From Candidatus Lokiarchaeum ossiferum (GTDB lineage Archaea > Asgardarchaeota > Lokiarchaeia > Sigyniarchaeales > Promethearchaeaceae): a DNA stretch of 32,000 bases. The position numbers and the translations under genes were made by a program. The notes beneath the pieces were generated by a model that made no database searches, was not told the origin of the DNA, and was given only the letters and a program-made list of their open reading frames with translations. Shown here in pieces: positions 3,668 to 24,242 of this stretch. Positions within the stretch are counted from its first letter, which is position 1; each line of letters begins with the position of its first letter. The stretch is from the NCBI GenBank assembly GCA_025839675.1, contig CP104013.1:2430001-2462000 (forward strand). The letters are read 5' to 3'.

Positions 3668-4492
3668 TTATTTTTGGCTTATTTCACGCAATATGGGTAT
3701 TTCAAGCGTGCAGTTAACACATTCTAATATCCCGATTCGAACGAGGTAATTCTGGATCATTAAGCACATTTCTCTATCAAACGATTCATAAAGCACCCGA
3801 TTGGTCTTATTTTGATCAAGATTATCTTTAAACAAAGCATAGAAGCGATCTAAACCTTTTTCAGCTTCTTCATCCAAATAATCTTGTACCATATGAGGTT
3901 TAAACAAGACTACAAAAAGAAGATCATTTTTTGTGGTGATACTCATCTCGATTTCCAACCCTTTCAAAGTAATGCGTTCAATTTTTCCCAAGTTTTCTTC
4001 TCCAAACATGGACAGAGCTGCAATGAATTGTGCAATTAGTTCGAGATTTATAGATTTATCAATTTGAACATAGTACAACAGATCTCCTCCAGATCGGCAT
4101 ATCCCCAAAGCTAAAATATATTCTTTCAACAATTTTTCTACCAGTTCATTTCGACAAAGACGAGGTAAGCTAATTTCCTTTTCAGATTTTGAGGATTTAG
4201 TCTCAATTTCTAAGACTTGATTAAGAAAATGACCTCTGATCCCATCTATACCAAAAAGATGCTTGTGAAAATATTGATGGGTCTTAGTAATATAAAGGAA
4301 TGGCAAGTAAAACTTACAATCATCTTCAATGCAGAATTCTGCAAGAAAATTTGGATCTTCCAATAAATTTTGATAAACAGCGGAATTTTCAATGGATTTT
4401 TCAGTATAGGAAATGTGATTTTGATTAAACCAATCTTTCAGCTGAAAACAGCGATTACAATCGGATTTAGTTATAATGTAGAAATCTTTCAC
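3668..4492 (-). CDS. Two-domain protein: N-terminal glutaredoxin/NrdH-like fold (CNRC) plus C-terminal roadblock/longin-like domain; putative GTPase partner 1
   Basis: The N-terminus FYIITKSDCNRCFQLKDWF...YLPFLYI...GIDGIRGHF fits the Grx pattern: beta1, CxxC, a cis-Pro strand and a GG-type turn. The C-terminal roughly 160 aa is a clear paralog of the ORF at 16304-16804, with shared blocks RSGGD-LY, FIAALSMFGEEN-GKI, LEIEMSI and YL-R-GIL. It is divergently adjacent to a small GTPase gene. Confidence 0.7.
   Translation of the reverse strand: MKDFYIITKSDCNRCFQLKDWFNQNHISYTEKSIENSAVYQNLLEDPNFLAEFCIEDDCKFYLPFLYITKTHQYFHKHLFGIDGIRGHFLNQVLEIETKSSKSEKEISLPRLCRNELVEKLLKEYILALGICRSGGDLLYYVQIDKSINLELIAQFIAALSMFGEENLGKIERITLKGLEIEMSITTKNDLLFVVLFKPHMVQDYLDEEAEKGLDRFYALFKDNLDQNKTNRVLYESFDREMCLMIQNYLVRIGILECVNCTLEIPILREISQK
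3671..4156 (-). other. Roadblock/longin-like domain, copy 1 (paralog of 16304-16804)
   Basis: The beta-beta-alpha-beta-beta pattern (ILALGICRSGGDLLYYVQ / ELIAQFIAALSMFGEE / IERITLKGLEIEMSITTKNDLLFVVLF) resembles Robl/LC7 (MglB-type) domains. Roughly half of aligned residues are identical to copy 2 by eye. Confidence 0.55.
4208..4492 (-). other. Glutaredoxin-like domain of the 3668-4492 protein (CxxC = C-N-R-C encoded at 4448-4459)
   Basis: The reverse complement of 4448-4459 reads TGT AAT CGC TGT. Position after the first beta-strand and the later LPF (cis-Pro-like) motif fit the thioredoxin fold. Confidence 0.55.
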
Positions 4493-5950: not shown

Positions 5951-6805
5951 TTACTTATCTGCTATTATTTTATTACTTTTACTATTGAAATTTCGAGTTA
6001 GGGGTACATACATTTTATCTTTCCAAATAAGAACTATAGCAATTATAACGTAAAATGAAAGCCTAACAAACTCGAAATTTAGGCCGAAGTTAAATACTTC
6101 ACCACTCACATTGATCATCCAATGAAATAGAATAGCAGATAAGATACTTTGATCCGTTTTTTTATTCAGCCAAGTCATTATAATGGTGGGAAAAATTATA
6201 TACCCATTAAAAATCCAAAATAAGGGAGATCCAAATATTACTTCTGTATTTTGATAAGAATCGGGGATGAAATATAAAGGGAAATGCCAAATTGCCCAAA
6301 ATGTTCCCAATATTAGACTGGATAGAAGGGAATTATATTTTATCTGGATTATCGGCAATGCACATCCTCGCCAACCGGGTTCTTCCATGCTCGCAGCAAG
6401 AAAATTAAAAAGGAGGATAAATAAAACTTGGACAGGCAGAATAATGATTGAACCGAAATTAGAAAAACCTATGGGATTGGTGGAAAATAATAGTTCTATA
6501 ATGCCTACACAAATAGAAATCAAAAAATTGAAGAAGATACTGAAAAATAACCATTGCCATTTCTTTCCCTTGCATTGATAGCACCTTTTCCAGAAAGAGA
6601 GTCTCGTTTCTTTTGATTCTAATTTGAACAAACAAAATATTGCCCCAAATAATGGCCCTAAACCACCAATGCTATGAAAAATGATACCAAAGGGAGTAGA
6701 ATAGCTTACTTGAAAGATTATTAAGATACCCCAGAACAACCATGAAAACCCAAACGTAAAAGCAAAAAAAATGAGATTTGGATGGGATTTTTGGATGAAA
6801 GCCAT
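5951..6805 (-). CDS. CPBP-family (CAAX/Abi) intramembrane glutamic metalloprotease
   Basis: Polytopic membrane protein with the three family motifs in order: EExxxR (MEEPGWRG), FxxxH (FWAIWHF) and HxxxN (LFHWMINV). Confidence 0.8.
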   Translation of the reverse strand: MAFIQKSHPNLIFFAFTFGFSWLFWGILIIFQVSYSTPFGIIFHSIGGLGPLFGAIFCLFKLESKETRLSFWKRCYQCKGKKWQWLFFSIFFNFLISICVGIIELLFSTNPIGFSNFGSIIILPVQVLFILLFNFLAASMEEPGWRGCALPIIQIKYNSLLSSLILGTFWAIWHFPLYFIPDSYQNTEVIFGSPLFWIFNGYIIFPTIIMTWLNKKTDQSILSAILFHWMINVSGEVFNFGLNFEFVRLSFYVIIAIVLIWKDKMYVPLTRNFNSKSNKIIADK

Positions 6806-10503: not shown

Positions 10504-10947
10504 TTATTTCTTTGTTTGAATTCGGAGAAGAATTGAATTCCAAAATGCATTCGTGAATTCAGGATCACTCAATTCTACTTTCCCAATTTTAACACGTGCT
10601 ATTTTAGGGAGAATTCCTTTTTGTGACAATTGAAGCTGCCTAATTGGTATTTCTTGACTATCCAATTTCATAGAGAGAGCCTCAAAGGGACATAATGCCA
10701 TACATACCCCACAAAAGACACATTTTGATTGATCTGGCATGATGGGCATCCGCGCAACTAAAGGCACTTTCATTCCTTTGGCAATCACGGGCATCTCCAA
10801 GGCATTTTTAGGACAAGCTTTCACACATTGTTTACAGGTTTTGCATTTATCCAGATGGAGAATTAAATCGGTTTTTCGGGTGAGATATTCCGAAGAAAAG
10901 GTCCGTGTCTTTATTTTTTCAGTAGTAGTAAGGATCGGCCATTTCAT
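10504..10947 (-). CDS. 2x[4Fe-4S] ferredoxin-domain protein, last gene of the hdr/mvhD operon
   Basis: Two CxxCxxCxxxCP motifs are present: CKTCKQCVKACP and CVFCGVCMALCP. Its start ATG overlaps the mvhD stop in an ATGA 4-nt overlap at 10944-10947, which suggests translational coupling. Confidence 0.8.
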   Translation of the reverse strand: MKWPILTTTEKIKTRTFSSEYLTRKTDLILHLDKCKTCKQCVKACPKNALEMPVIAKGMKVPLVARMPIMPDQSKCVFCGVCMALCPFEALSMKLDSQEIPIRQLQLSQKGILPKIARVKIGKVELSDPEFTNAFWNSILLRIQTKK

Positions 10948-11396
10948 GCTTGAATTTCCTCCATGTGATTTAATCGGGCGACTTCTTTTAAGGGATTCGG
11001 CCCGAGTGCTTTTAATTCATGGACATATTCTTTGATCCGTTCAGTAAATTCAGCTCCTTCACTAGCACTAATATGCCAGAGTTGTACTCGTTTCGGATTA
11101 ATACCATATTGTTCAATGAATTTTTGGATCAAGGCGAATCGCCTAACGGTTTTAAAATTTCCTTCAACGTAATGACAATCGCCTAAATGACATGCGCCAA
11201 TAATAACACCATCGGCTCCTTGTTTCAAAGCTTTAAGGGCGTAATCAGGATCCATTCTACCGGAACACATTAGTCGAATGATACGGACGTTTGCGGGACG
11301 TTGCATACGACTTCGTCCAGCTTGATCGCTTCCTGTATATGTGCACCAATTACAGAAGAATCCCACAATGTATGGTTCAAAGTTATCGTTTTCCAT
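10944..11396 (-). CDS. mvhD: MvhD/FlpD-like iron-sulfur subunit (methyl-viologen-reducing hydrogenase delta subunit family)
   Basis: FFCNWCTYTGSDQAG...RLMCSGR...GCHLGDCHY is the family signature. The ORF track starts at a TTG (11405). However, AGGAG at 11406-11410 abuts that codon and sits 9 nt from the ATG at 11396, so I prefer 11396. Confidence 0.8.
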   Translation of the reverse strand: MENDNFEPYIVGFFCNWCTYTGSDQAGRSRMQRPANVRIIRLMCSGRMDPDYALKALKQGADGVIIGACHLGDCHYVEGNFKTVRRFALIQKFIEQYGINPKRVQLWHISASEGAEFTERIKEYVHELKALGPNPLKEVARLNHMEEIQA

Positions 11397-11408
11397 GATG
11401 ACCAACTC

Positions 11409-13394
11409 CTAATTCGCCCCTCCTTCTCCGTGCACTTCCCACGGTTTAAGGGATTCCAATTCACTAAGGACTTGAGTTTTAGTAAAATGATTTTGGTCAA
11501 TGGCACTACTAGGACAGGTGATCATACAGACACCGCACCCTTTACAGCGGAGGGTATCTATCACCGATACATTTTTCTCTTCGTCAAATGAAATTGCATC
11601 AAAAGAACACACCGATAAACATGAACGACACCCGGAACATATTTCAGACCGCACTTCAGCATAGTAGGGTTCAATTTCCACCTCTCCCGCAGCCATGAAA
11701 TTGTCTGCACTGCTCGCAGCAGCTTTTGCTTGAGCGACAGCATCCGGAATATCACGAGGAGCTTGACAAGTACCACCTATGAAAACACCTTGGGAAAGCG
11801 AATCAACGGGGAATAATTTAGGATGGGCTTCCATAAACATCCCATCATCGGTTAATTGGACTCCAAACTTACGGCCCACATCACTGGCATCTTTCCGGGC
11901 TTCAATGGCTGTGGATAAAATAAGCATATCGACTTCGATTTCAAATTTTTCTCCCAAGAGAGTTTCACTACCCTCCAAGATCAAACTTCCATCTACTTTT
12001 TCAAACACGGATCCGATTCTTCCTCGAACAAAGTTAATGCCGTATTCACGAGCAGCAATTTCATAAAACTCTTCATATCCTTTCCCAAAAGCTCGGATAT
12101 CCATATAAAAAATGTAAACTTGGGAATCAGGATATTTTTCTTTATATTGACGGGCTTGTTTCATAGCATACATACAACATACTCGACTGCAATATTTGTG
12201 ACACCCCTCATGAAAATCACGCGAACCAACACATTGTAAGAATCCCACACTTTTTGGGGTCTGGTGATCTGAAGGTTTGATAACTTTCCCGAGAGTAGGC
12301 CCAGTGCTACTAAGGATCCGTTCAAATTCGATGGCAGTCAGAACATTTTTATATTTCTTGTAACCTAACCGCGCAATTCCACTGGGATCAAAAATATCAT
12401 TCCCGGTAGTTAAAATAATGGAACCAACTGTGAGATCGATTAATTCATCTTTTCGACTTAAATCAATAGCCCCAACTTCACAAGCTTGAACACAAAGCCC
12501 GCATTCAATACAGTTTTGGGAATCAATCGTGTATTGTTCTGGGACTGCCTGAGGAAATGGAATATACGCCGCGGCCCTATGACCCAAATTGAGATCAAAT
12601 TCATTAGGAATTGTGAGAGGACATGCTTGAGCACAAGCTCCGCAGCCCGTACAAATATTGCCATCAATTTTCGACGCTTTTCTTCTCACAGTTACTTTAA
12701 AATTGCCCACATTTAGATCCACGTCTTCAACTTCAGAATACGTTAGTAAATTGATATTTGGATGGCGACCAACTTCGACCATTTTTGGAGTAATAATACA
12801 CGCAGAACAATCCATGGTTGGAAATGTTTTATCCAGTTGGGCCATATGTCCTCCAATAGTGGGACTCCGCTCAACGAGATGTACTTTGTATTTATTGGTT
12901 AAATCTAAAGCTGCAAACATGCCCGAAATGCCTCCTCCCACAACCAAAGCTTCTTGAACCACAGGAAATTTTTGGCGTTCAAGGGGTTTGTTATGGGAGA
13001 CTTTTGCAATCGCCATTTTTAAATGATCCTTGGCGATGTCTAAAGCACCTGGATGATCATGCATATTTACCCAAGAAGCATGTTCACGAATATTCGCTTG
13101 TTCAAAGAAAAACTCATTGAATCCGTTTTTTTTCATCACGGTTCGATAAGTATCTTCATGCATTAAAGGACTACAAGCAGCCACAACCACCCTATTTACT
13201 TTTCCAGAGTTTAAATCATCGGCAATCATTTCTTGGCCGGCTGTACTGCACATAAATTTGTATTCTTTCACGAGAGATACATTTGCAAGTTGCGAAGCAT
13301 ATTCACATAGCGCATCAATATCCACGACATCGGAAATATTTTTTCCACAATGACACACATAAACTCCCACTTTGACATCATCTGAGTTGGACAA
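11409..13394 (-). CDS. hdrA: Heterodisulfide reductase subunit A (FAD plus multiple Fe-S clusters)
   Basis: 661 aa. It has an N-terminal Cys cluster (VCHCGKNIS), a dinucleotide fold (VVGGGISGMFAALDL), and four ferredoxin-type motifs (CTGCGACAQACP, CIECGLCVQACE, CSGCRSCLSVCS, CKGCGVCMITCP). It starts at TTG, preceded by GGAGGT 8 nt upstream inside the end of hdrB. Confidence 0.9.
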   Translation of the reverse strand: MSNSDDVKVGVYVCHCGKNISDVVDIDALCEYASQLANVSLVKEYKFMCSTAGQEMIADDLNSGKVNRVVVAACSPLMHEDTYRTVMKKNGFNEFFFEQANIREHASWVNMHDHPGALDIAKDHLKMAIAKVSHNKPLERQKFPVVQEALVVGGGISGMFAALDLTNKYKVHLVERSPTIGGHMAQLDKTFPTMDCSACIITPKMVEVGRHPNINLLTYSEVEDVDLNVGNFKVTVRRKASKIDGNICTGCGACAQACPLTIPNEFDLNLGHRAAAYIPFPQAVPEQYTIDSQNCIECGLCVQACEVGAIDLSRKDELIDLTVGSIILTTGNDIFDPSGIARLGYKKYKNVLTAIEFERILSSTGPTLGKVIKPSDHQTPKSVGFLQCVGSRDFHEGCHKYCSRVCCMYAMKQARQYKEKYPDSQVYIFYMDIRAFGKGYEEFYEIAAREYGINFVRGRIGSVFEKVDGSLILEGSETLLGEKFEIEVDMLILSTAIEARKDASDVGRKFGVQLTDDGMFMEAHPKLFPVDSLSQGVFIGGTCQAPRDIPDAVAQAKAAASSADNFMAAGEVEIEPYYAEVRSEICSGCRSCLSVCSFDAISFDEEKNVSVIDTLRCKGCGVCMITCPSSAIDQNHFTKTQVLSELESLKPWEVHGEGGAN

Positions 13395-13396
13395 AT

Positions 13397-14377
13397 TTAA
13401 TTACCTCCTTCAGTCAAGGGCATATTCTTGACTTTTTCTAATATTGGGTCTTGTGATGTGAAGGGTGAAATACCTTTCATGTCCGCAGGTTTTATCATCC
13501 CTAAACGTTCTGGTTCAATTCCCATGGCTAAACCAAGAAGTTGAGTAATATAGATTACAGGAATTTGGAATGGTACTTCTCCTTCATCCATTAAATTCGC
13601 TACTTCCAATTGTCCTAAATCATACTGCAATTGGCAAAATGGACAACATACCACAATGCAATCTGCCCCTGCCTTTCGAATTTCCCGTAATTTTTCCAAA
13701 GTTAAGTGGGAACTCACGGATTTATTGGCTGTCCGCACAGCTCCACCTGCCCCACAACACATCATCTTCTTACGATAAATGATGGAAGTAGCTCCAGTTG
13801 CTTCAACAATTTCATCAAAGAATGTGGGATCATCAGGATCTTGCCCAAAAACTTGAATTGCGGCGGGTTTTAAAATGTGACAGCCATAATGGACCGCAAC
13901 ATTCAGATTAAGCTTACGTTTTACCAAGGATTTGATTTTTTCAACACCGATATCATAATATAGGACATCCATGATGTGGCGAACTTTTGAAGTTCCGGTA
14001 TAAGTGCGACCCACAGATGATAGCACTTCATTAACGCGTCCTTTAAGTTCTTCATTATGCTTAAGTTGATGATCTACCTCATTTAAAGTTCCATTGCATC
14101 CATTACAAAGGGTGAGGAGATCATTATGATTTTGTTCAGCAATGTTAATATTCCGAGCCCCCACGGTGAGCCACATAGCTTTATCCACAGACCGAAAAAC
14201 GCCTGGAGCAGGGCAACAACTCGCACCTTCCATTTCATCTACTTTAATATTCAACTCATCAAACAAGGTGCGTGATGCGCGTTCAATCATAGGATACCTA
14301 TTAGGAATCACACAGCCCAAAAAGAGGGAATAATTCAATTCCTTTGAAGATTTATCTGATATTTTTTCACTTTCCAT
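13397..14377 (-). CDS. hdrB: Heterodisulfide reductase subunit B (two CCG domains)
   Basis: Two cysteine-rich CCG-type motifs are present: CCPAPG with CNGCNG, and CCGAGG with CCPFC. AAGGTGA lies 7 nt upstream of the ATG, directly after the hdrC stop. Confidence 0.9.
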   Translation of the reverse strand: MESEKISDKSSKELNYSLFLGCVIPNRYPMIERASRTLFDELNIKVDEMEGASCCPAPGVFRSVDKAMWLTVGARNINIAEQNHNDLLTLCNGCNGTLNEVDHQLKHNEELKGRVNEVLSSVGRTYTGTSKVRHIMDVLYYDIGVEKIKSLVKRKLNLNVAVHYGCHILKPAAIQVFGQDPDDPTFFDEIVEATGATSIIYRKKMMCCGAGGAVRTANKSVSSHLTLEKLREIRKAGADCIVVCCPFCQLQYDLGQLEVANLMDEGEVPFQIPVIYITQLLGLAMGIEPERLGMIKPADMKGISPFTSQDPILEKVKNMPLTEGGN

Positions 14378-14389
14378 TTTTAGGTCACC

Positions 14390-14920
14390 TTAAAGTTGAT
14401 AGGGAATCCTGCCGTTAAACTTGATTTTGTTGATTAGAGTATAGAGCTCATCCATTGCTTCTGGATAACTATGGACTGTTGGAGGTAGGGGGGGAAGATC
14501 CATTTTGATACGTAATTTGGCCCAAGTAGACAGTTCACCACCCAATGGTACAGCGTGACCATGCTGCACCAAATTTTTAATCACACCTTTCAATGGATCG
14601 GGAATATGACCTTCACGAACAGCCATATTGCGCAATTTTAGAATGATTTCGGTCACTGGAATCGTTCGTGGACAGCGTTCATAGCAATTAAAGCAGGTTG
14701 AACAAAGCCAAATATCATTACTTGACAGAACTGATTCTAAGCCAACGAGCGCTTGCCGCATAATTTTTCGTGTTTTCATAGCGGTCCAGTTACCTGAAGG
14801 GCAACCTGCAGAACACTCCCCACACTGGATGCATGCCCGAATTTTACTATGGGATTCTTCAATGGATAATTCTGTGAGAATATCAGGATTAAATTGTATT
14901 AAATTTTTATTTCGGCTCAT
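14390..14920 (-). CDS. hdrC: Heterodisulfide reductase subunit C (2x[4Fe-4S])
   Basis: CIQCGECSAGCP and CSTCFNCYERCP are present. The track ORF extends to a GTG at 14944. The ATG at 14920 (MSRNKNL...) follows a purine-rich GAAGGGAAGGAA and is preferred. Confidence 0.85.
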   Translation of the reverse strand: MSRNKNLIQFNPDILTELSIEESHSKIRACIQCGECSAGCPSGNWTAMKTRKIMRQALVGLESVLSSNDIWLCSTCFNCYERCPRTIPVTEIILKLRNMAVREGHIPDPLKGVIKNLVQHGHAVPLGGELSTWAKLRIKMDLPPLPPTVHSYPEAMDELYTLINKIKFNGRIPYQL

Positions 14921-14980
14921 TTCCTTCCCTTCATTATTAAACACCTTCGACGTAGGAAAGTTAGGGAAAACTTCAAATTC

Positions 14981-15051
14981 AAGTCACCCATTTTCACACG
15001 TGAAAACTGATAATTTGCTTTGGATGAACACCTTCTTAAATAAGTCACCCA
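14981..15051. promoter_or_regulatory. hdr leader/upstream element: exact 10-mer AAGTCACCCA twice (14981-14990, 15042-15051) flanking an inverted repeat TTTTCAC-ac-GTGAAAA (14991-15006, CACGTG core)
   Basis: Read directly from the sequence. In hdr orientation the decamer reads TGGGTGACTT and contains an SD-like GGTGA. Confidence 0.4.
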
Positions 15052-15255
15052 ACTGACAATATTATCACTAAACTTAGTATTTACAACTTAAGTTTATTGT
15101 TATTAGATCATTAAATAAGAATTGATTAATAAAATTTGTTCTGCACATTAATAAATACTCCAAACAATAGTAGGATTTGTAGGTAAAAAAAAAGACAAAT
15201 TGATCCAAAATTCCACTAATTCAGAACATTTATCAATTCTTTTTGAATTAATTAG

Positions 15256-15268
15256 ATATATAAAAAAA
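15256..15268 (+). promoter_or_regulatory. A/T-rich TATA-like box upstream of GTPase gene 2
   Basis: atatataaaaaaa lies about 60 nt upstream of the ATG at 15328. This is the typical composition of an archaeal TATA box. Confidence 0.4.
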
Positions 15269-15306
15269 TACTTTAGGTTGAGTTATCGTAGATGATACCT
15301 AAAGTA
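15269..15306. promoter_or_regulatory. Perfect 10-bp inverted repeat TACTTTAGGT-N18-ACCTAAAGTA abutting the TATA-like box
   Basis: The arms are 15269-15278 and 15297-15306 and are exact reverse complements. The element lies between the A/T box and the start codon of the GcvH-like GTPase gene. Confidence 0.45.
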
Positions 15307-15327
15307 TAATTTTTGAGATGCGAAATT

Positions 15328-16281
15328 ATGGTCACAATTGCAGATGGACGGTTTAGTCTACCGGATAATCTTCTATATACGAAAAATCAACATGTATATT
15401 TGAATAATGATAAAAAAACACTCGGATTAGATGAGATTGGTTATGCCTTCTTGCACAATCCAAATGAATTGAAAATTTTAGTTGAGGATGAAGTGAAAAT
15501 AGGGATTCCTTTCGCAGCAATTACCACAGATTCAGGAATGACAACATTGAATTCTCCATGCTCAGGAAAAATTAAGCAATTAAATCCTAACGCACTTGCC
15601 TCAATGAAAGATCATACCTATGAAACAGGATTTATCATTGAATTGGAAGAGATCACCGAAGTCCAACCAAATTTGGTAACGGGGTCTGAATTGCAAGAAT
15701 GGGGAAATAATGAAGTCAAAACTTTAGTCCGAAACAATTATTCCTTCAAGATCATTGAAATTGGCGATTCGGCAGTAGGAAAAACCGCAATAAAAGTGCG
15801 TTTTACTGATAACTATTTTAAAAAGGATCTAAAAACAACCTTAGGAGTGGATTTTGGTTCCAAAGAAATCAAGGGAGAGTATATTAGCAGCGATATTTTG
15901 TTCTCGGGCACTTATCGTTTCACGGCCAAAATGAATGTTTGGGATGCAGCCGGACAGGCCATGTATGACAAAATTCGAGGTATGTACTATCGAGATGCAA
16001 AGGGTGCACTTATGTGTTATGATGTACACAATCATTTATCCTTTGAACATTTAGAGAAGTGGCGAGAAGAGCTAGAAGAGAGTTTGGGAAAAGTACCTGT
16101 CCTTCTCGTTGGAAATAAGATTGATCTGGAACGAAAGGTCACCCGTCAAGAAGGTTTAGCTTATGCGATGAAGCATAATTACCTTTTTGTTGAGTGTTCT
16201 GCCAAAACAGGTGAAGGTGTTGATGACATGTTTAAACAGCTCGCCGTAGAGATATTCAAGCGGGAAGAAAAATTAGAGTAA
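15328..16281 (+). CDS. GcvH-like (glycine-cleavage H fold, no lipoyl lysine) N-terminal domain fused to a Rab-like small GTPase
   Basis: GTPase motifs: G1 GDSAVGKT, G2 TTLGVDF, G3 WDAAGQ, G4 GNKID, G5 CSAKTG. The N-terminal roughly 125 aa aligns by eye to GcvH: LLYTKNQHVY versus YSKEHEW, SPCSGKIKQLNPNAL versus APVSGEIVAVNDAL, and ETGFIIELE versus GGWIFKIK. The track start (TTG at 15313) is probably an extension, and the ATG at 15328 is preferred. There is no C-terminal Cys. Confidence 0.85.
   Translation: MVTIADGRFSLPDNLLYTKNQHVYLNNDKKTLGLDEIGYAFLHNPNELKILVEDEVKIGIPFAAITTDSGMTTLNSPCSGKIKQLNPNALASMKDHTYETGFIIELEEITEVQPNLVTGSELQEWGNNEVKTLVRNNYSFKIIEIGDSAVGKTAIKVRFTDNYFKKDLKTTLGVDFGSKEIKGEYISSDILFSGTYRFTAKMNVWDAAGQAMYDKIRGMYYRDAKGALMCYDVHNHLSFEHLEKWREELEESLGKVPVLLVGNKIDLERKVTRQEGLAYAMKHNYLFVECSAKTGEGVDDMFKQLAVEIFKREEKLE
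15346..15696 (+). other. GcvH-like hybrid-barrel domain; the position equivalent to the lipoyl lysine is Ser (codon 15532-15534)
   Basis: Counting 8 residues upstream of the conserved P in P-x-S-G gives ITTDSGMTTLNSP against E. coli AESVKAASDIYAP. This places D-S-G where V-K-A lies. Confidence 0.55.
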
Positions 16282-16303
16282 TCGGAGAAATAGGTGAAAA
16301 ATT

Positions 16304-16804
16304 GTGGTGAACGAGCTAATTTTTGAGCGATTTAAATCGAATAATTTAACCGACAGTCAGTGCCAGCTTGTTCAAAAAATTTTAAAGCACTATATTTTAG
16401 GAATTTTCATTTCTCGTTCTGGGGGGGATATTCTATATGATTTTCAGCTTGATGAAAGCATCAAGATTGATCTTATCTCCCACTTTATCGCAGCTCTTTC
16501 TATGTTCGGGGAAGAAAATGTAGGAAAAATCAAACGAATTTTCATTGAAGGACTAGATATTGAGATGAGTATTGTTCAGAAACACGATCTGGTAAGTGTT
16601 ACTTTTTTCCGTCCCAATATGGTCAAGGATTACCTAGAAGCGGAATCAAGTAAAGGATTAGATCTGTTTTACAATATGTTCGAAGAATCTATCAAAGCAG
16701 GCAAAAATAATAAAGCCATTTATGAAGGATTTGACGATCCTATGTGCCATTTGATTCAAGAATATTTGCAAAGATTAGGTATTTTAAAGGATAAAGAAAA
16801 ATAA
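16304..16804 (+). CDS. Roadblock/longin-like protein, putative GTPase partner 2 (paralog of the C-terminal domain of 3668-4492)
   Basis: 166 aa. It has a GTG start with AGGTGA (16292-16297) 6 nt upstream, only 22 nt after the GTPase stop, so it is likely co-transcribed. Shared blocks with the 3668-4492 protein are ISRSGGDILY, FIAALSMFGEENVGKI, LDIEMSI, KDYLE, KGLD-FY and QEYLQRLGIL. Confidence 0.7.
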   Translation: MVNELIFERFKSNNLTDSQCQLVQKILKHYILGIFISRSGGDILYDFQLDESIKIDLISHFIAALSMFGEENVGKIKRIFIEGLDIEMSIVQKHDLVSVTFFRPNMVKDYLEAESSKGLDLFYNMFEESIKAGKNNKAIYEGFDDPMCHLIQEYLQRLGILKDKEK

Positions 16805-16808
16805 TATA

Positions 16809-16815
16809 TTTTTTT
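16809..16815 (+). terminator. Oligo-T tract after GTPase module 2
   Basis: T(7) begins 5 nt after the stop at 16804. Confidence 0.4.
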
Positions 16816-17450: not shown

Positions 17451-18170
17451 ATGAAGGTCTCGAAATTCCAAATTTGGTTCATGGATCATCTCGAACGTTT
17501 GCAGAATCAACATGTAGAAATTCGACAATTAATAGTGGAGTTACTTTCCTTAACAAAAAAAGCAAATACAAATAAAAATGCAGAGGAAATTGCACTTATT
17601 TTAGGAAGAATTTCGGGACGATTCAAATTGAACCATACTATGGAAAGCAAGAGTGTTTACCAATACCTAATGGATTCTCATGACACGCAAAAAATGAAAA
17701 TTGCGAAGACATTTTTAAGTGAAATGGAGAATTTAATGACCGAATTTGCCCAATATCGAAAAAATTATCGATTAAGTTATGATATTAAAGCCAATATGCC
17801 ACAATTTAAGAAAATCAGCGAAATTATTTTTCGGAAGATTGAAATCCGATTAAATCAAGAAGATAATACTTTATATCCCTTGGTTGATGAAGAGAAACTT
17901 GATATGAAAATACATAATGCAATCCAATCAACAAAAAGGATTGGACAACATGGAACACCTAAACGGGAGATTTTTCCCGAAAATGAAGAAGACTATCAAA
18001 AGATAGAACTCACTCAAGAACAACTAAAACTCGAGCAACCCATTCGTATTTCATTAGTAAATTCAAAGATTTCGTCAAATCCAATAAAAAAAAACGCAGT
18101 GAATGAATTTATGGAAGAATTGAAAGAAATTGACAGAAAAGATTCCGAAAAAACAAAAACAAATAAGTAA
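17451..18170 (+). CDS. Helical protein with weak hemerythrin/HHE-like features and a Lys/Glu-rich tail
   Basis: DH..L....H..I at the N-terminus, NHTMESKSVYQYL (H-x2-E...Y..L) and RLNQEDNTLYPLV (E-D-x-x-L-Y-P) resemble HHE cation-binding repeats. Several expected His residues are missing, so the call is weak. Confidence 0.35.
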   Translation: MKVSKFQIWFMDHLERLQNQHVEIRQLIVELLSLTKKANTNKNAEEIALILGRISGRFKLNHTMESKSVYQYLMDSHDTQKMKIAKTFLSEMENLMTEFAQYRKNYRLSYDIKANMPQFKKISEIIFRKIEIRLNQEDNTLYPLVDEEKLDMKIHNAIQSTKRIGQHGTPKREIFPENEEDYQKIELTQEQLKLEQPIRISLVNSKISSNPIKKNAVNEFMEELKEIDRKDSEKTKTNK

Positions 18171-18372: not shown

Positions 18373-19644
18373 ATGATGTTTAGAAATTTCATTAAGGCTG
18401 CTCCCGATTATCTATCCCTTAAATTGAGTGATTTTATAGGCCATTTCATAAATTTAAAAACAACAGATACTTTTAAAAATTGGATTCAATATGCTGATTA
18501 TTCAAAATTGATGGGGTATTCATGTAGATCCCTTTTTGAAACATGCATGAGGTTTTTAGAGAAAAAAGACCTCGTAGTCGCAACCACACCCCTTCATCAT
18601 ACCTCATTTCGAAATATTATAGAATTACATGTTCAACCCGAAAATCTTCACATCATACCGTTTAATGATACTTATAATGGATTAGGAACTCTTCCCAAAT
18701 TGGACCGGTGCGATATAATCGTAGTAACACATCTCTTTGGACAAGACTTAAATCTCACTTCCTTATTGGAATTCAAGAAAAAACATAATTGCATCATCAT
18801 AGAAGACCGAGTACAAGGGGGAACCTTGGATTTAAAATTCAGTCATGATGTAGTAGATATTGCGCTCTATTCCATGGCAATGGATAAACGACCTATTGCT
18901 TTGGGAGGAGGAATCATGCACATTAGAAATAATTTTCGGGAAATCATCAAATATGTGCGGGAATCAGTCATGGATCTCCCCCTCGAACAGGTTGCAAGTA
19001 GAAAGAAAGAATTACTAAAAAAAATCCCCACATATCTTCTCTATAACAGCAGACCTTTTCTTTATTTATTTATTAATATCGTAAACTTACTCAATCGGTT
19101 CAATAATGACATTAACTTGTTAAATATCACTCAATCTTATCGCAAATCAAATCCAGGATTCAGCCATAACGATTTTATGTTGCAACCATCCAATTCTCTT
19201 TTGAAATCGATGCATGAAAATCTTGGTAATTACTCCTTTATGGAAGAAAATTACGCAAAAAAATCGTTATACTTTATGAACTGTCTACCCGCAGAAGTCC
19301 GAAAGTTCTTTTTCCCTTGGTTCAAAGGTAATGCCAGTTTAACACCCTATAATACCATCCAAGTTCCAGAATCTTCAATTAAACATTTTCTTCAATACTT
19401 TAATGATCACAATATGTCTGTAATTACCAATCCTACATACAAACTTTTTAACTTTCCAAATAAGTTTAGCCAAAAGGATGAACAATTCAATAATGGAATT
19501 ATATATCTCCCTTCAGTAGCGAATATGAAGAAATTTGAAATTCGATATTTAGCGAGTTATATCGTTAATTTTTATATGACATATATTTCCGCCCCTTCAA
19601 AAAGTAAAACCGAAAAAATAACTCCAATTCAAGTGATTTCGTGA
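18373..19644 (+). CDS. DegT/DnrJ/EryC1-like fold-type-I PLP-dependent enzyme (divergent)
   Basis: Three blocks align by eye to sugar aminotransferases such as ArnB. DLVVATTPLHHTSFRNII matches DEVITPSMTWVST. DIIVVTHLFGQDLNLTSLLEFKKKHNCIIIEDRVQGG matches KAIIPVHYAG...IPVIEDAAHA. DIALYSMAMDKRPIALGGGIM matches AIFSFHAIKNITCAEGGIV. Lys172 falls at the Schiff-base position. Confidence 0.6.
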   Translation: MMFRNFIKAAPDYLSLKLSDFIGHFINLKTTDTFKNWIQYADYSKLMGYSCRSLFETCMRFLEKKDLVVATTPLHHTSFRNIIELHVQPENLHIIPFNDTYNGLGTLPKLDRCDIIVVTHLFGQDLNLTSLLEFKKKHNCIIIEDRVQGGTLDLKFSHDVVDIALYSMAMDKRPIALGGGIMHIRNNFREIIKYVRESVMDLPLEQVASRKKELLKKIPTYLLYNSRPFLYLFINIVNLLNRFNNDINLLNITQSYRKSNPGFSHNDFMLQPSNSLLKSMHENLGNYSFMEENYAKKSLYFMNCLPAEVRKFFFPWFKGNASLTPYNTIQVPESSIKHFLQYFNDHNMSVITNPTYKLFNFPNKFSQKDEQFNNGIIYLPSVANMKKFEIRYLASYIVNFYMTYISAPSKSKTEKITPIQVIS

Positions 19645-19690: not shown

Positions 19691-20581
19691 ATGATAACTA
19701 TGGATCACCTTGAACGACTTGAAAATAAAAGTATACACATAATGCGAGAAGCCTATAATCAATTTAAAAATCTGGGAATGCTCTGGTCAATTGGTAAAGA
19801 TTCGACAGTTCTTCTCTGGTTAGCCCGAAAGGCCTTCTTTGGACATGTCCCTTTCCCGCTTGTACACATTGATACAGGTTATAAAATTCCTGAAATGATC
19901 GAGCATCGGGATCGATTAGCAAAAGAGTGGAATCTCGATATGGTCTATGGACAAAACCGAACAGCATTAAATGAAAAGCAAACCTTTCCAGATGGGACAA
20001 CAACCCATTTAGATTGTTGTAAACTCCTAAAAACCCAAGCATTAGAAAATACTTTGAATGGAAAATGGCCCAGATACCGCATGAACCATAAGAAATCTCA
20101 ATATGAAATCGATTCAAACAATGAAGCCTTCGAGGGAATCATTGTAGGAGTGAGAGCCGATGAAGAAGGCAGCCGCTCCAAAGAACGGTATTTCTCCCCA
20201 CGGAATACACACAATGACTGGATCATTGAAGATCAACCTCCAGAATTTTGGAACCAATATAAAACAGACTTCCACCCGGGAACTCATATCAGAGTCCATC
20301 CTCTTTTAGATTGGACCGAGTTAGACATATGGGAATATATAGAACGAGAGAATATACCAATGGTTTCCCTTTATTTTGACAAGGGGGAAGGGAAAAGATA
20401 TCGATCCTTGGGTTGTTGGCCATGTACTAAGCCTGTAGATTCCCACGCAGCCAACGTTCATCAAATTATTGCTGAATTGAAAACAGGTAAGTTTGTAAAT
20501 ATTGCTGAAAGGGACGGTCGGGCCCAAGATAAAGAAGATGGCGGCGGTTTGGAAGTTTTACGCCGCGATGGGTATATGTAA
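19691..20581 (+). CDS. cysD: Sulfate adenylyltransferase subunit 2
   Basis: [16 protein letters not shown] is present, with a PP-loop-type [12 protein letters not shown], and C-terminal [11 protein letters not shown] followed by [10 protein letters not shown]. This is typical of CysD. Confidence 0.9.
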
Positions 20582-20594
20582 CTGAGGAATAGAA

Positions 20595-22445
20595 ATGACA
20601 CAACCATATATTGACACTAATTACACCGAAAATACAAAGGATCTAGAAGAAGAAATAAGTGATCGCATGAATATTGCGATTGTAGGTCATGTAGATCATG
20701 GAAAAAGTACAATCATTGGTAGATTGCTCGCAGATACCAAATCATTACCTCAAGGAAAGCTAGAACAAATAAAGGAGCGATGTAAAAGGAATTCTAAGCC
20801 GTTTGAATATTCATTCTTACTGGATGCTTTAAAGGACGAACAAGCGCAAGGTATCACAATAGATACAGCACGGGTTTTTTTCAATAGTGAAAAAAGAAAA
20901 TACATCATTTTAGACACCCCTGGACATATAGAATTCCTTCGAAATGTCGTAACGGGTGCATCTCGCGCCGAAGCAGCATTGCTAATTATAGATGCCCATG
21001 AAGGAATTCAAGAAAACTCCAAACGTTATTGCTACATGATTTCTCTCTTAGGAATTAAAAAGATTTCCATAGTTGTTAACAAAATGGATCTGATTGATTA
21101 CTCTGAAACAAAGTTCCTTAATATTGTTCACGAATATCAACAATTCTTAGATAAAATTCAAGTCACTCCTTTAAGTTTCATACCAGTAAGTGGAAAATTG
21201 GGTGACAATGTTGCATCTAATTCTGAGAATATTCCATGGTACAAAGGACCTTCCATCCTATCCCAATTAGATATGTTTATAGGGGAAAAAATTCCTGAAG
21301 ATCAAAATTTCCGAATGTCTGTGCAAGATGTGTACAAATTTACAGAAAATAATGATAAACGAAGAATTGTTGCAGGAACTATCGAATCAGGAGCTATTTC
21401 AGTAGGTGAGGAGGTAGTGTTTCTTCCCTCAGGAAAAACGAGTAAAATTCAAAGTATTGAGGGATTCAACACTTCTACAAAAAAAACTATAACAGCCGGT
21501 TATGCTACAGGTTTTACGATTGCCGATCATCTTTATATTAAAAGAGGTCAAATTATGGCTCGATCGGATCAAAATCAACCCCATGTAGCAAATAATATTG
21601 TTGTTGATCTATTTTGGTTAGGAAAATTACCGCTCCAGTATGAAAAAGAATACTTTATAAAGATAGGTGCTCAAAAAGTGCCTTTTACCCTCCAAAAAAT
21701 TCGTAGAGTTATAGATGCAACCAATTTGAATTTTGAAGAAAAGCCAGAAATTCATAGAAATGAAGTTGCAGAGTGTGAATTTTTGTTAAAAGAACCGATC
21801 GCATTTGATTTAACTCATGAATTGTTATTAACCAGTCGTTTCGTTATCGTGGATGATTTCGAAATAGCAGGTGGAGGGATAATCTCCGACATCATTAACA
21901 ATTCAACAGAAAAAACCAAAAAAACGAATGAAAATCTAAGTTTTGCATGGGAACGAAGTAGGATTGGTATGGATGATCGTGCAGAGCGATATAATCAAAA
22001 ATCAAGCTTGATATTAATAACTGGAGGCAAAGAAAGCCGAAAGAAGGAGATAGCCAAAGCACTTGAAAAAGAACTGTTTTCTCAAGGCAAATTTGTTTAT
22101 CATATGGGAATAGGACATTTGCTTTATGGATTAGATGAAAGTGTTAGATTGAATACAATTAATAATACTGACAACCACATCAGCAGACTTGCGGAAATTG
22201 CCAATATTATGTTAGATTCTGGCTGTATTTTAATTGTTACTGCAAGATCATTGAACCAATCAGACCTAGAACTCTTAAGAAAAACACTAATTGTGCCCGA
22301 AAAATTGATTAGTGTGTGGATAGGTAATGTGGTTTTTACTGATATCAAGGTAGATTACCATCTATTTAACTTCCAGCGGATTAAACGGGGAGTAAAAAGG
22401 TTAAAACAAATCTTGCAAGACAAAGGAATTATTTTCAAAATATAA
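20595..22445 (+). CDS. cysN: Sulfate adenylyltransferase subunit 1 (GTPase) fused to a degenerate APS-kinase-like C-terminal domain
   Basis: G1 is [10 protein letters not shown]3 is DTPGH and G4 is NKMD. GAGGA lies 6 nt upstream of the ATG, 13 nt after the cysD stop. The C-terminal roughly 170 aa is homologous to CysC, but the Walker A and DGD motifs are not conserved (see finding). Confidence 0.9.
21942..22445 (+). other. APS-kinase-like domain with a non-canonical P-loop
   Basis: [22 protein letters not shown] aligns with Cys[34 protein letters not shown] aligns with [18 protein letters not shown] aligns with LTAFISP. Overall collinearity with E. coli CysC is clear, while the catalytic motifs are substituted. 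Confidence 0.6.
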
Positions 22446-22448
22446 GTC

Positions 22449-22458
22449 TTTTTTTTTT
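22449..22458 (+). terminator. T(10) tract between cysN and cysH (possible terminator or attenuation point)
   Basis: The T run starts 4 nt after the cysN stop and ends 11 nt before the cysH ATG. Confidence 0.3.
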
Positions 22459-22469
22459 GATAAAATAGG

Positions 22470-23285
22470 ATGCAACCAAATATGTCAACAGAAAAAACTC
22501 AATACGCTCTAAATTTATTAGAATCAGCATTTATTAATACAAAACCACGAGGTGTAGGATGTTCTTTTGGGAAAGATAGTGTTACCGCTGTTCATTTAGC
22601 ACGACGAATCGATCCAAATATTCCTGTATTTTCGATTATGACAATTTTCAAACCTAAAGAGACTTTTGAATATTTAGTGGAAATCAACCGTCTTCTGAAT
22701 TTAGATGTCTTGGTATATATGGTAGCCGAACGGGTTCCACAAATATTAATTGATAATGGAATAAAAGTGGAATTATTATCTCCAGATAATTTTCGAGAAG
22801 CTCAAGGAACTCATGAGAATTTCTTACATACTGAAGATGTTGACCGATGTTGTCATCTCCTCAAAGTGGTTCCGATTCAAAAAGCAGTGGCGAATTATGA
22901 CGTATTGATCGATGGACTTCGAAGTTCAGAAGGAATCACTCGTCAAAATTTGCAAGAAATTGAAATAACTGGAGACCTAACAAAAATTCATCCAATTCTC
23001 CACTTTACAGAAGAAGATATATTTGAATATCTCAAAAAAAATGACATCCCTATTCATCCATGGTATTTGAAAACGTTTCCAGATGGGAAACGTTATCGAT
23101 CTTTAGGTTGTGCCCCTTGTACACGACCAATTTTTGATCATGAATCAGAACGCGATGGGCGGTGGCAAGGAAGTAAAAAAGAAGGCGGTGAATGCGGAAT
23201 ACACACAAATCAAATTAAACCTTCAAAACAGAATATCCCCCTTCAAAAAACTTTTGTGATGGAAAAACAGGATTATAATTGCTAG
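22470..23285 (+). CDS. cysH: Phosphoadenosine/adenosine phosphosulfate reductase family, Fe-S (APS reductase-type) variant
   Basis: It has a PP-loop-like CSFGKDSVTAVHL and the C-terminal catalytic motif ECGIH. It also carries the CC (DRCCHL) plus CxxC (LGCAPCT) cysteines that ligate the [4Fe-4S] cluster in assimilatory APS reductases. These are absent from E. coli-type PAPS reductase. Confidence 0.8.
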   Translation: MQPNMSTEKTQYALNLLESAFINTKPRGVGCSFGKDSVTAVHLARRIDPNIPVFSIMTIFKPKETFEYLVEINRLLNLDVLVYMVAERVPQILIDNGIKVELLSPDNFREAQGTHENFLHTEDVDRCCHLLKVVPIQKAVANYDVLIDGLRSSEGITRQNLQEIEITGDLTKIHPILHFTEEDIFEYLKKNDIPIHPWYLKTFPDGKRYRSLGCAPCTRPIFDHESERDGRWQGSKKEGGECGIHTNQIKPSKQNIPLQKTFVMEKQDYNC

Positions 23286-23363
23286 TTTCTTTATAACCCC
23301 TTTATGTCATCATGATTGATCAATTTTTCCAAATGTTGAATTTAATGAGAAAAGCTAAGTAAA

Positions 23364-24242
23364 ATGATGCTATCGCTTGCAGAATTGTCAACCATGACAT
23401 TTATGGGTATTCTATTAATGATTTTTTTAGGATTTTTCATAGGTATTATTACTTCAATAAGTGGAATTGGCGGAGGGGCCATAATTATGCCGTTTCTTCT
23501 TTTAATTTTAAATATGGATCATAATTATGCAAAAGGAACAAGTTTATTTTTAATCCTACTTAGTTCCGGAATCGCGACATTATATAACATAAAACAAAAA
23601 AAGATATCAATTTCCATTATCCTATTCACATCATTCTTTGGAATTTTAGGCAGTATTTCTTGTTTTATCTTCCAAAAATACTTGATTATTGAAGAACGGA
23701 TTTTTTTTATTTTATTTGGACTTTTTGAAGTAATTATGGCATTCCGAATGATTTTCAAAGCCAAATTAGAGTTAAAAAACATTTCCAAAAGTAGTATTAC
23801 TCTAGATCCATCAATTGACAAGTCCATTTCACCATCCAATTCCATCTTAAAGATTGAACATAACTCATTCTGGACAAATAAGAGAGTTTTTCGCGCATCG
23901 CCATTCTTTTTTGTAACGGGATTTCTCACCACGTTTTTTGGAATAGGAGGAGGTCCAATAACAACCCCTGTATTTCATGAAATACTACATATGCCAATTA
24001 CAAGTGCGATTGCTTCTTCAAGTGCAATGATTTTCGTCAATTCGATAATTAATGTCATCTATTATGGAATTCAGGGAGAAATTCAATGGGTATTTGGAGT
24101 AATAATTGGGATAGGAATGATGGTAGGCTCTTATACAGGGGTTTTCCTATCAAATCATATTTCAAAATCTATGGTCTATTTTCTAATTGGGATCTTGCTA
24201 GGAATTCTGGGCACGGTTATGATCATTGGTTTCTTTGTTTAA
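23364..24242 (+). CDS. TauE/SafE-family anion (sulfite/sulfonate) exporter-like membrane protein
   Basis: Two homologous halves each begin with the G-I-G-G-G motif (SISGIGGGAIIMPFL and TFFGIGGGPITTPVF). They are separated by a hydrophilic loop, with about 8 TM helices in total. Confidence 0.75.
   Translation: MMLSLAELSTMTFMGILLMIFLGFFIGIITSISGIGGGAIIMPFLLLILNMDHNYAKGTSLFLILLSSGIATLYNIKQKKISISIILFTSFFGILGSISCFIFQKYLIIEERIFFILFGLFEVIMAFRMIFKAKLELKNISKSSITLDPSIDKSISPSNSILKIEHNSFWTNKRVFRASPFFFVTGFLTTFFGIGGGPITTPVFHEILHMPITSAIASSSAMIFVNSIINVIYYGIQGEIQWVFGVIIGIGMMVGSYTGVFLSNHISKSMVYFLIGILLGILGTVMIIGFFV

Follow-up and report, generated by a model that had tools for sequence, protein, structure and literature searches.

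A GcvH-like/Rab-like GTPase and a roadblock/longin-fold partner form a conserved gene pair beside heterodisulfide reductase genes in Promethearchaeaceae

The window described here, a 32,000-nucleotide (nt) stretch of the Candidatus Lokiarchaeum ossiferum contig CP104013.1 (positions 2,430,001 to 2,462,000, forward strand), carries two closely spaced genes on its plus strand. The first encodes a protein of 317 amino acids (aa) in which a GcvH (H-protein)-like domain precedes a Rab-like small GTPase domain; the second encodes a 166-aa partner with a roadblock/longin fold. A heterodisulfide reductase (Hdr) gene cluster lies upstream of the pair on the opposite strand. The domain identities and the conservation of the pairing are near certain. 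In window coordinates, the features of the pair are as follows:

15328..16281, plus strand: gene for the 317-aa GcvH-like/Rab-like GTPase (NEF87_002033 / UYP45748.1), an open reading frame (ORF) with ATG at 15328 and TAA at 16279-16281
15355..15693, plus strand: GcvH (H-protein)-like barrel-sandwich domain, residues 10-122, from hhalign, PDB profile matches and an AlphaFold (AF2) model
15532..15534, plus strand: codon for Ser69, which takes the place of the GcvH lipoyl-lysine at the hairpin tip, from alignment to GcvH K63
15739..16254, plus strand: Rab-like G domain, residues 138-309, from Pfam Ras, TIGR00231 and Foldseek
16282..16303, plus strand: 22-nt spacer from GTPase gene to partner gene, with AGGTGA at 16292-16297, 6 nt 5' of the GTG, and no T-run
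16304..16804, plus strand: gene for the 166-aa roadblock/longin-fold partner (NEF87_002034), an ORF with GTG at 16304 and TAA at 16802-16804
16809..16815, plus strand: T7 run, a likely archaeal oligo-T terminator, starting 5 nt past the partner stop

An alternative upstream start for the GTPase ORF is possible at a TTG at 15313; the ATG is supported because MV-IA-GR begins every homolog, and a newer L. ossiferum assembly also calls a 317-aa gene at this position. Public records list the exact sequence as a “hypothetical protein”, or as a “GTP-binding protein” in UniRef, and RefSeq gives the name “Rab family GTPase” to WP_371806353.1, a cluster member of nearly the same sequence from the newer assembly.

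The N-terminal domain falls below the threshold of the Pfam model for its family: GCV_H (PF01597) scores the isolated N-terminus at 16.2 bits (E=0.0098) against a cut-off of 22.2, and elsewhere in the family it gives 17.0 bits for the homolog at locus L016 and a “weak” match on the ortholog at L007. A word-indexed search with this domain alone returned one fragment and missed the query protein itself, and repeating it with a profile added little. The relationship emerges when profiles are compared. A family profile (A2) built from 12 members matched solely GcvH and lipoyl domains among PDB sequences, with GcvH chains as the best matches (E=4.5e-4), and the family profile reaches true GcvH proteins in a collection of 5.8 billion sequences. 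Aligned by hhalign to true GcvH, it gave a probability of 98.45% (E=4.2e-15) over 111 columns, covering residues 10-122 of the GTPase protein and residues 2-120 of the 126 in GcvH. The GcvH fold that the sequence-only reading had assigned to this domain is therefore recovered by the kind of profile comparison set as its check. The AF2 model of this stretch is beta-rich with a C-terminal helix, at a predicted local distance difference test score (pLDDT) mostly above 90, and the motif SP(C/V)SG(K)(I/V)xxxN is common to the GcvH-like domain and GcvH.

The residue that defines GcvH as a cofactor carrier is missing from the domain. In the alignment the counterpart of GcvH K63 is Ser69, at the tip of a predicted hairpin (strands 61-67 and 70-75), and the corresponding column reads S, A, T, Q, N, E or K, with lysine in two of 23 family members. 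Because the lipoyl-lysine position is not conserved, the domain cannot serve as a lipoate carrier or swinging arm. Neither gcvT, gcvP nor lpd is found among the genes called within 10 kb on either side of the pair, and no lipoate ligase genes were seen in its neighbourhood. Read from these alignments, the N-terminal domain is a pseudo-H-protein domain, a degenerate homolog of GcvH. The nearly invariant Cys78 of its SPCSG motif was considered as a redox thiol and dropped, as ordinary GcvH has APCNG at the same place.

The G domain carries the complete set of nucleotide-binding motifs, and both sequence and structural comparisons place it with the Rabs, as had been proposed from its motifs. Pfam Ras matches residues 141-309 at 158 bits (E=1.7e-46; cut-off 21.6), and the NCBIfam small_GTP model TIGR00231 scores 89.9 bits against a cut-off of 42.5. 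The motifs are the P-loop GDSAVGKT at residues 146-153, TTLGVDF at 170-176 (with T171), WDAAGQ at 205-210, GNKID at 262-266 and CSAKTG at 290-295; G1-G5 are invariant across the Hdr-linked clade in the family alignment, and in the sequence all catalytic motifs, including the switch II glutamine, are intact. When the AF2 model of the GTPase was compared with the PDB by Foldseek, nearly all of the top 50 matches were Rabs (Rab8, 27, 6, 4, 11, 2, 18, 10 and 5) and three were KRAS; the matches had E-values of about 1e-17 and template-modelling (TM) scores on the target of mostly 0.86-0.92, with 0.77-0.79 for Rab27a-effector fusion constructs. A set of Rab family motifs, RabF1-F5, is said to have been defined by Pereira-Leal and Seabra in 2000. 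Compared with these by eye, LGVDF is close to IGVDF and YYRDA to YYRGA, and the RabF2, F3 and F5 regions are poor matches. The protein ends in ...EIFKREEKLE, with no cysteine and so no prenylation motif, in agreement with the earlier observation that a prenylated tail is lacking; none of the small GTPases of Promethearchaeum syntrophicum MK-D1 has a C-terminal prenylation cysteine motif (Tran et al. 2024). Among distant family members (P0074, P0077, P0085, P0089 and L019) the switch II glutamine is absent, the motif reading WDISGN, WEIVTQ, WDIGS, WDVGGS and WDTSGS, and switch I is degenerate; judged by these motifs, such GTPases may be catalytically inactive.

The partner protein matches no Pfam or NCBIfam model, and its profile matches nothing among PDB sequences; sequence models fail to recognise this putative regulator, which is why it was overlooked earlier. 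At least 68 proteins belong to the family, every named one comes from Lokiarchaeum or Promethearchaeia, and one paralog is called “Roadblock/LC7 domain...” in UniRef. An AF2 model computed on 60 sequences (pLDDT 86; predicted TM score, pTM, 0.83) has the topology alpha-beta-beta-alpha-beta-beta-beta-alpha-alpha, with helices at residues 17-30, 55-75, 112-131 and 137-157 and strands at 31-38, 43-48, 78-81, 86-93 and 96-102. Foldseek aligned this model with LAMTOR2/3 (the best matches), the zeta-COP and AP longins, Mon1-Ccz1, MglB and the crystal structures of MK-D1 Roadblock2/3, at E-values from 1e-4 to 2e-3; the 27 PDB matches at E<=1e-3 were all roadblock or longin proteins. The description of the partner as roadblock-like is thus right at the level of fold. 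By the definitions of Tran et al. (2024), an N-terminal helix is a roadblock trait and a second C-terminal helix a longin trait, and the partner model has both. A weak match to the Pfam longin model for Mon1, Fuz and HPS1 (Fuz_longin_1) was found in six of 60 family members, at best E=5e-4. The longins of GAP (GTPase-activating protein) type, FLCN, SMCR8 and NPRL2, carry a GP motif just before beta2 (PMC12290439). This motif is absent from the beta1-beta2 loop of the partner, which across the 60 members has no proline and has R38-x-G-G41-D42 instead; this R-x-G-G-D loop is strongly conserved, with G41 present in 60 of 60.

To follow the pair through related genomes, the window proteins were mapped by tblastn onto all retrieved loci (numbered with the prefix L), and orthogroups were read from quick neighbor-joining trees calculated without support values. 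These trees separate at least two orthogroups of GcvH-like GTPases. Throughout the orthogroup of the window (orthogroup 1) the partner gene lies directly downstream of the GTPase gene, as in L005, L007, L009/L010, L011, L013-L015, L018, L025, L030 and L035. The spacer, 22 nt in the window, measures 5 nt in L005, 2 in L007, 25 in L010 and 11 in L015, the MK-D1 locus; only L025 departs from this, its spacer being 196 nt long with a T9 run. The MK-D1 ortholog (WP_147662223.1 / QEE15308.1) is 69% identical over all 317 residues, with the same two domains and the partner downstream.

The sequence-only reading had drawn a two-gene operon from a 22-nt gap, an AGGTGA 6 nt before the GTG start and a T(7) run past the partner, all of which lie where it had put them. 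Neither signal is evidence by itself, because neither is rare in a window of 35% GC (13 AGGTGA found against 11.4 expected; 88 T7 against 68 +/- 12), and it is their placement that is informative. Many genes at the end of a same-strand gene run in the window are followed, within 25 nt of the stop codon, by at least seven consecutive T, and no such T-run occurs inside the Hdr operon or in the GTPase-partner spacer. A scan for sigma-70 promoters and hairpin terminators gave nothing useful, as its models are unsuited to archaea. The same strand, the lack of a terminator between the genes and a pairing that is kept in relatives bear out the closely spaced two-gene unit, and we infer that GTPase and partner are co-transcribed.

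Partner-family genes also occur in other settings. Paralogs adjoin other GTPases, both in the second GTPase module of the window (Module 1, described below) and in L024/L026. In three Hdr-linked loci (L013 8998-10006, L014 6905-7922 and L025 4001-5015) two partner-family genes lie by the GTPase, in tandem or convergent; the copies in L013 and L014 are the tandem ones. Such paired genes would fit a heterodimeric roadblock/longin platform. A 155-aa ORF downstream of the Harpocratesius paralog was considered as a partner and rejected (0.17%).

The GTPase gene, too, has paralogs. GcvH-like GTPase genes whose products share about 59% and about 70% identity with the window protein stand side by side in L012 (1019-3075), L027 (819-2809), L031 and L033; they are divergent in L012 and L027, and in tandem with a partner gene between them in L031 and L033. 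L. ossiferum itself has another copy in the second orthogroup, NEF87_002490, at 64% identity. Members of this orthogroup (L024, which is L. ossiferum CP163304.1 at about 3.24 Mb, and L026, L032, L033, L037, L038 and L040) adjoin two paralogous SIS-domain genes, each coding for about 365 aa and similar to the C-terminal region of GlmS; some of these loci have RtcB upstream and partner paralogs nearby.

The architecture itself is rare. When 1.84 billion cluster representatives were searched exhaustively with phmmer, about 10 clusters matched the N-terminal domain together with the G domain, and all remaining matches among the top 150 cover the G domain alone. Pattern scans of genomes and metagenomes place the family in Promethearchaeaceae or on unclassified archaeal contigs only, the sources being Lokiarchaeum, P. 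syntrophicum MK-D1, Promethearchaeum metagenome-assembled genomes, Harpocratesius and contigs from Loki's Castle; the genome scan also gave three weak bacterial matches of 21-79 residues (E ~5e-5).

Upstream of the pair, and divergent from it in the window, lies a run of genes for an Hdr complex:

14945..15327, no strand: intergenic region separating the divergent hdrC and GTPase genes, from the ORF map
14390-14920/14944, minus strand: HdrC (NCBIfam TIGR03290, 161.7 bits, cut-off 160)
13397-14377, minus strand: HdrB (NCBIfam TIGR03288, 392.6 bits, cut-off 345)
11409-13394, minus strand: HdrA, HdrA2-like (NCBIfam, 834 bits)
10944-11405, minus strand: MvhD/FlpD (NCBIfam, VhuD-like)
10504-10947, minus strand: 2x[4Fe-4S] ferredoxin
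10504..14944, minus strand: the linked Hdr cluster overall (NCBIfam, Pfam and adjacency in other loci)

By these matches, the adjacent cluster is of the standard HdrABC/MvhD type and not an sHdr gene set. Genes for HdrC, HdrB, HdrA, MvhD/FlpD and ferredoxin stand beside the pair in all 12 of the other distinct orthogroup-1 loci with a readable upstream region, at 55-88% protein identity. Two arrangements are found. The Hdr genes and the GTPase gene are divergent in Lokiarchaeum and co-directional in Promethearchaeum. By locus, the divergent order is that of the window, L005, L007 and L009/10/18/35, and the co-directional order, a seven-gene string HdrC-B-A-FlpD-Fer4-GTPase-partner, is that of MK-D1 (L015), L011, L013, L014, L025 and L028-L030. 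In the Promethearchaeum loci the spacer between the ferredoxin and GTPase genes is 49-54 nt long, with a GGAG and no T-run. The upstream intergenic region of the window aligns well only with that of the close relative L005, and beyond the seven-gene block the genes vary between genera: downstream of the pair, the window has hemerythrin-like and sulfate-activation genes, L007/L009 have TPR proteins, and L025 has a 328-aa protein and ThiI. That almost all of the related genomes examined have the pair next to Hdr genes suggests that its role lies in metabolism rather than in membrane traffic.

These observations have led us to propose a model in which the two genes encode a Promethearchaeaceae-specific switch, made of a GTPase and a roadblock/longin regulator, whose pseudo-H domain docks on Hdr. 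By analogy with MglB-MglA, Ragulator-Rag and Mon1-Ccz1-Ypt7, the partner would bind the G domain, probably as a dimer, and set its nucleotide state, acting as a GAP or as a guanine nucleotide exchange factor (GEF). The pseudo-H-protein domain would form the output or adaptor end of the switch, and its client in this orthogroup would be the HdrABC-MvhD(FlpD)-ferredoxin complex encoded alongside. The loaded nucleotide, GTP or GDP, would in turn gate how the Hdr complex associates, assembles or is placed. Precedent for linking a GcvH-like domain to Hdr comes from sulfur oxidisers, where Hdr-like complexes have the GcvH-like LbpA proteins as obligate partners (PMC6067878). We would give this reading as a whole an even chance of being right. 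Regulation of the G domain by the partner is likely, on the strength of the analogies just named. The identity of the Hdr complex as the client is the weakest step, to be held tentatively and with somewhat more doubt than belief, as the physical link is drawn from gene neighbourhood. A more specific form of the proposal, in which the pair regulates or helps to assemble an electron-bifurcating HdrABC-MvhD under nucleotide control, docked via the lysine-less pseudo-H-protein domain much as LbpA docks on sHdr, is improbable as it stands.

Several observations weigh against the proposed Hdr-docked switch. GcvH-like GTPase paralogs are found away from Hdr, by the SIS gene pair and sometimes RtcB, so the H-like domain is not Hdr-specific in itself. 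On the short contigs L012 and L027 it is a diverged paralog, not Hdr, that lies directly upstream. In L025 the ferredoxin gene and the GTPase gene are each followed by a T8/T9 run, and co-transcription is thus not universal. Shared ancestry contributes to the synteny, because all of the genomes come from one family. Lastly, the orientation of the two domains in the GTPase model is moderately confident, with a pTM of 0.70 against a pLDDT of 91.

The main rival makes use of the same facts. It holds that the Hdr adjacency has no functional meaning and that the protein is a generic Asgard Rab-like switch, acting for example on membranes or the cytoskeleton, with an H-like domain that binds an unrelated client. 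The paralogs of the same architecture that sit elsewhere speak for it, as does the derivation of every Hdr-linked locus from a single archaeal family, which would make the adjacency inherited synteny, and one inversion suffices to account for both arrangements. What speaks against it is that the linkage has survived that inversion although the outer flanks are not kept between genera, and that it recurs without exception among the 12 loci at the identities given above. We regard this rival as unlikely, if a serious contender.

A second alternative takes its cue from sulfur oxidisers, whose sHdr genes invariably come together with those for GcvH-like LbpA proteins (Cao et al. 2018, eLife; PMC6067878). 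In it the N-terminal domain would be a working cofactor carrier like LbpA, and the GTPase would gate its delivery of a lipoate-like or other thiol group to the active site of HdrB. GcvH homology and Hdr linkage are both what such a carrier would have, the pairing of LbpA with Hdr is established, and the disulfide substrate of Asgard HdrABC is unidentified (PMC11291895). The lysine, however, argues in the other direction: it is kept in 95 of 95 LbpA proteins (PMC6067878), whereas the domain described here has Ser69 and the family has lysine in the two members already counted. Because every LbpA keeps its lipoyl-lysine, the GcvH-like domain cannot be an LbpA. Nor is Cys78 a special thiol, given the APCNG of ordinary GcvH, and the adjacent Hdr is of the HdrABC/MvhD type and not sHdr. 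This alternative is most improbable.

In a third alternative the H-like domain is no adaptor; it packs on the switch regions of its own G domain and keeps the GTPase switched off until release by the partner or a ligand. The AF2 model offers some room for this. Both domains are confidently folded (pLDDT 91 for the whole model) and linked by a predicted helix at residues 119-133, and a pTM of 0.70 allows a defined interface. The interswitch hairpin, moreover, is extended in this family: the beta2-beta3 hairpin exceeds that of the other window GTPase, or of typical Rabs, by about 10-12 residues, as seen from a 10-residue gap against the former and from long strands at residues 174-186 and 195-207 of the model. 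Intramolecular packing would, on the other side, leave the conserved gene neighbourhoods unexplained, and we consider it quite improbable.

The proposed switch bears on a wider difficulty. The roles of the many Asgard Rab-like GTPases are unknown, and matching these GTPases to their regulators is hard, because in MK-D1 the genes of small GTPases seldom share an operon with roadblock or longin genes (Tran et al. 2024). The Rab paralogs of MK-D1 have no switch I arginine and may depend on GAPs (Tran et al. 2024). The module described here provides a conserved, presumably cognate GTPase-regulator pair, present in both cultured Lokiarchaeia, L. ossiferum and MK-D1, and so open to experiment, and it brings with it a concrete candidate client in the Hdr complex. 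It also provides a second, independent pairing of genes for an H-protein-family domain and a heterodisulfide reductase, this time without lipoate. If the pair did regulate HdrABC-MvhD, an Asgard Rab-like GTPase would for the first time have an assigned function, and part of the “eukaryotic signature” GTPase expansion would be linked with energy metabolism, not membrane traffic.

The GcvH-Rab architecture is rare, catalogued and functionally undescribed. Tran et al. (2024, Commun Biol 7:273) mark two MK-D1 proteins “-GCVHG” in their Supplementary Fig. 5, one the exact ortholog WP_147662223.1 and the other its paralog WP_147661646.1, where the letters denote domains and both proteins fall in the “Rab” clade; the architecture is not discussed in that paper, and its main figure puts such proteins under “?”. 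No text treating the GcvH-GTPase fusion or the Hdr linkage was found in the literature, in which the supplement label is the sole trace. The sequence-only reading, which knew of no such fusion among described architectures, therefore overstated its novelty; its anatomy of the two proteins stood, and it had recognised neither the missing lipoyl-lysine nor the Hdr linkage. The loss of the lysine, the conserved GTPase-partner pair and the Hdr linkage are apparently new.

A second GTPase module, presumably the Module 1 of the sequence-only reading, lies on the far side of the Hdr cluster:

3668-4492, minus strand: 274-aa paralog of the partner, divergent to the Module 1 GTPase and 57% identical over 142 aa
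4928-5923, plus strand: Module 1 Ras-family GTPase of 331 aa, with a 158-aa N-terminal extension
5951-6805, minus strand: gene for an Rce1-like type II CAAX prenyl endopeptidase, convergent with and immediately downstream of the Module 1 GTPase

The partner paralog has an additional N-terminal region of about 110 aa. The N-terminal extension of the Module 1 GTPase was tried as a GcvH-like domain and rejected (hhalign 0.4%); it gave only a faint MP1/LAMTOR3-like match. This GTPase ends in ...VVKII, and the CAAX cysteine is absent. On the other side of the gene pair, a hemerythrin-like gene (17451-18170, plus strand) and a gene for a 423-aa protein (18373-19644, plus strand) follow, as they do in the close relative L005/L006 and not in other genera. 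Beyond them, a sulfate activation/assimilation cluster (19691-24242, plus strand) comprises two genes of the PAPS-reductase family, a CysN/CysC-like fusion of GTPase and APS kinase, and TauE; a T10 run lies past the CysNC gene, and the cluster is not kept beside the pair in other genera.

Among known systems, one of the closest is MglA-MglB, in which a small GTPase gene is likewise paired with a gene for a roadblock-fold protein, and the partner model matches MglB (6h5b_B) at E ~1e-3. The G domain described here differs in being Rab-like, with a switch II glutamine, and not MglA-like; the partner differs in having an N-terminal helix and two C-terminal helices, and any GAP role for it, unlike that of the roadblock GAP MglB, is putative. 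With Ragulator/LAMTOR-Rag and with Mon1-Ccz1-Ypt7/Rab7 the likeness is one of fold, at 9-18% identity: LAMTOR2/3 are the best structural matches of the partner, Mon1-Ccz1 is matched as well, and the six of 60 family members noted above share a faint sequence similarity with the Mon1/Fuz/HPS1 longins. The partner is a single small domain, neither multi-subunit nor tri-longin in make-up, and any GEF role for it is putative.

The N-terminus of the GTPase is homologous to GcvH (PF01597) across essentially the whole domain and is set apart from it by its score below the Pfam threshold, by its lack of the lipoyl-lysine and by its fusion to a G domain. As in the sHdr-LbpA systems, a GcvH-family domain is encoded beside heterodisulfide-reductase-type genes; here, however, the lipoyl-lysine is absent, the domain is fused to a GTPase and the Hdr is HdrABC plus MvhD. 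The MK-D1 protein is a direct ortholog, for which Tran et al. (2024) give a label only, their work treating neither the missing lysine, the partner nor the Hdr neighbourhood. At that locus the pair is co-directional with hdrCBA-flpD-fer4, whereas in L. ossiferum the two are divergent.

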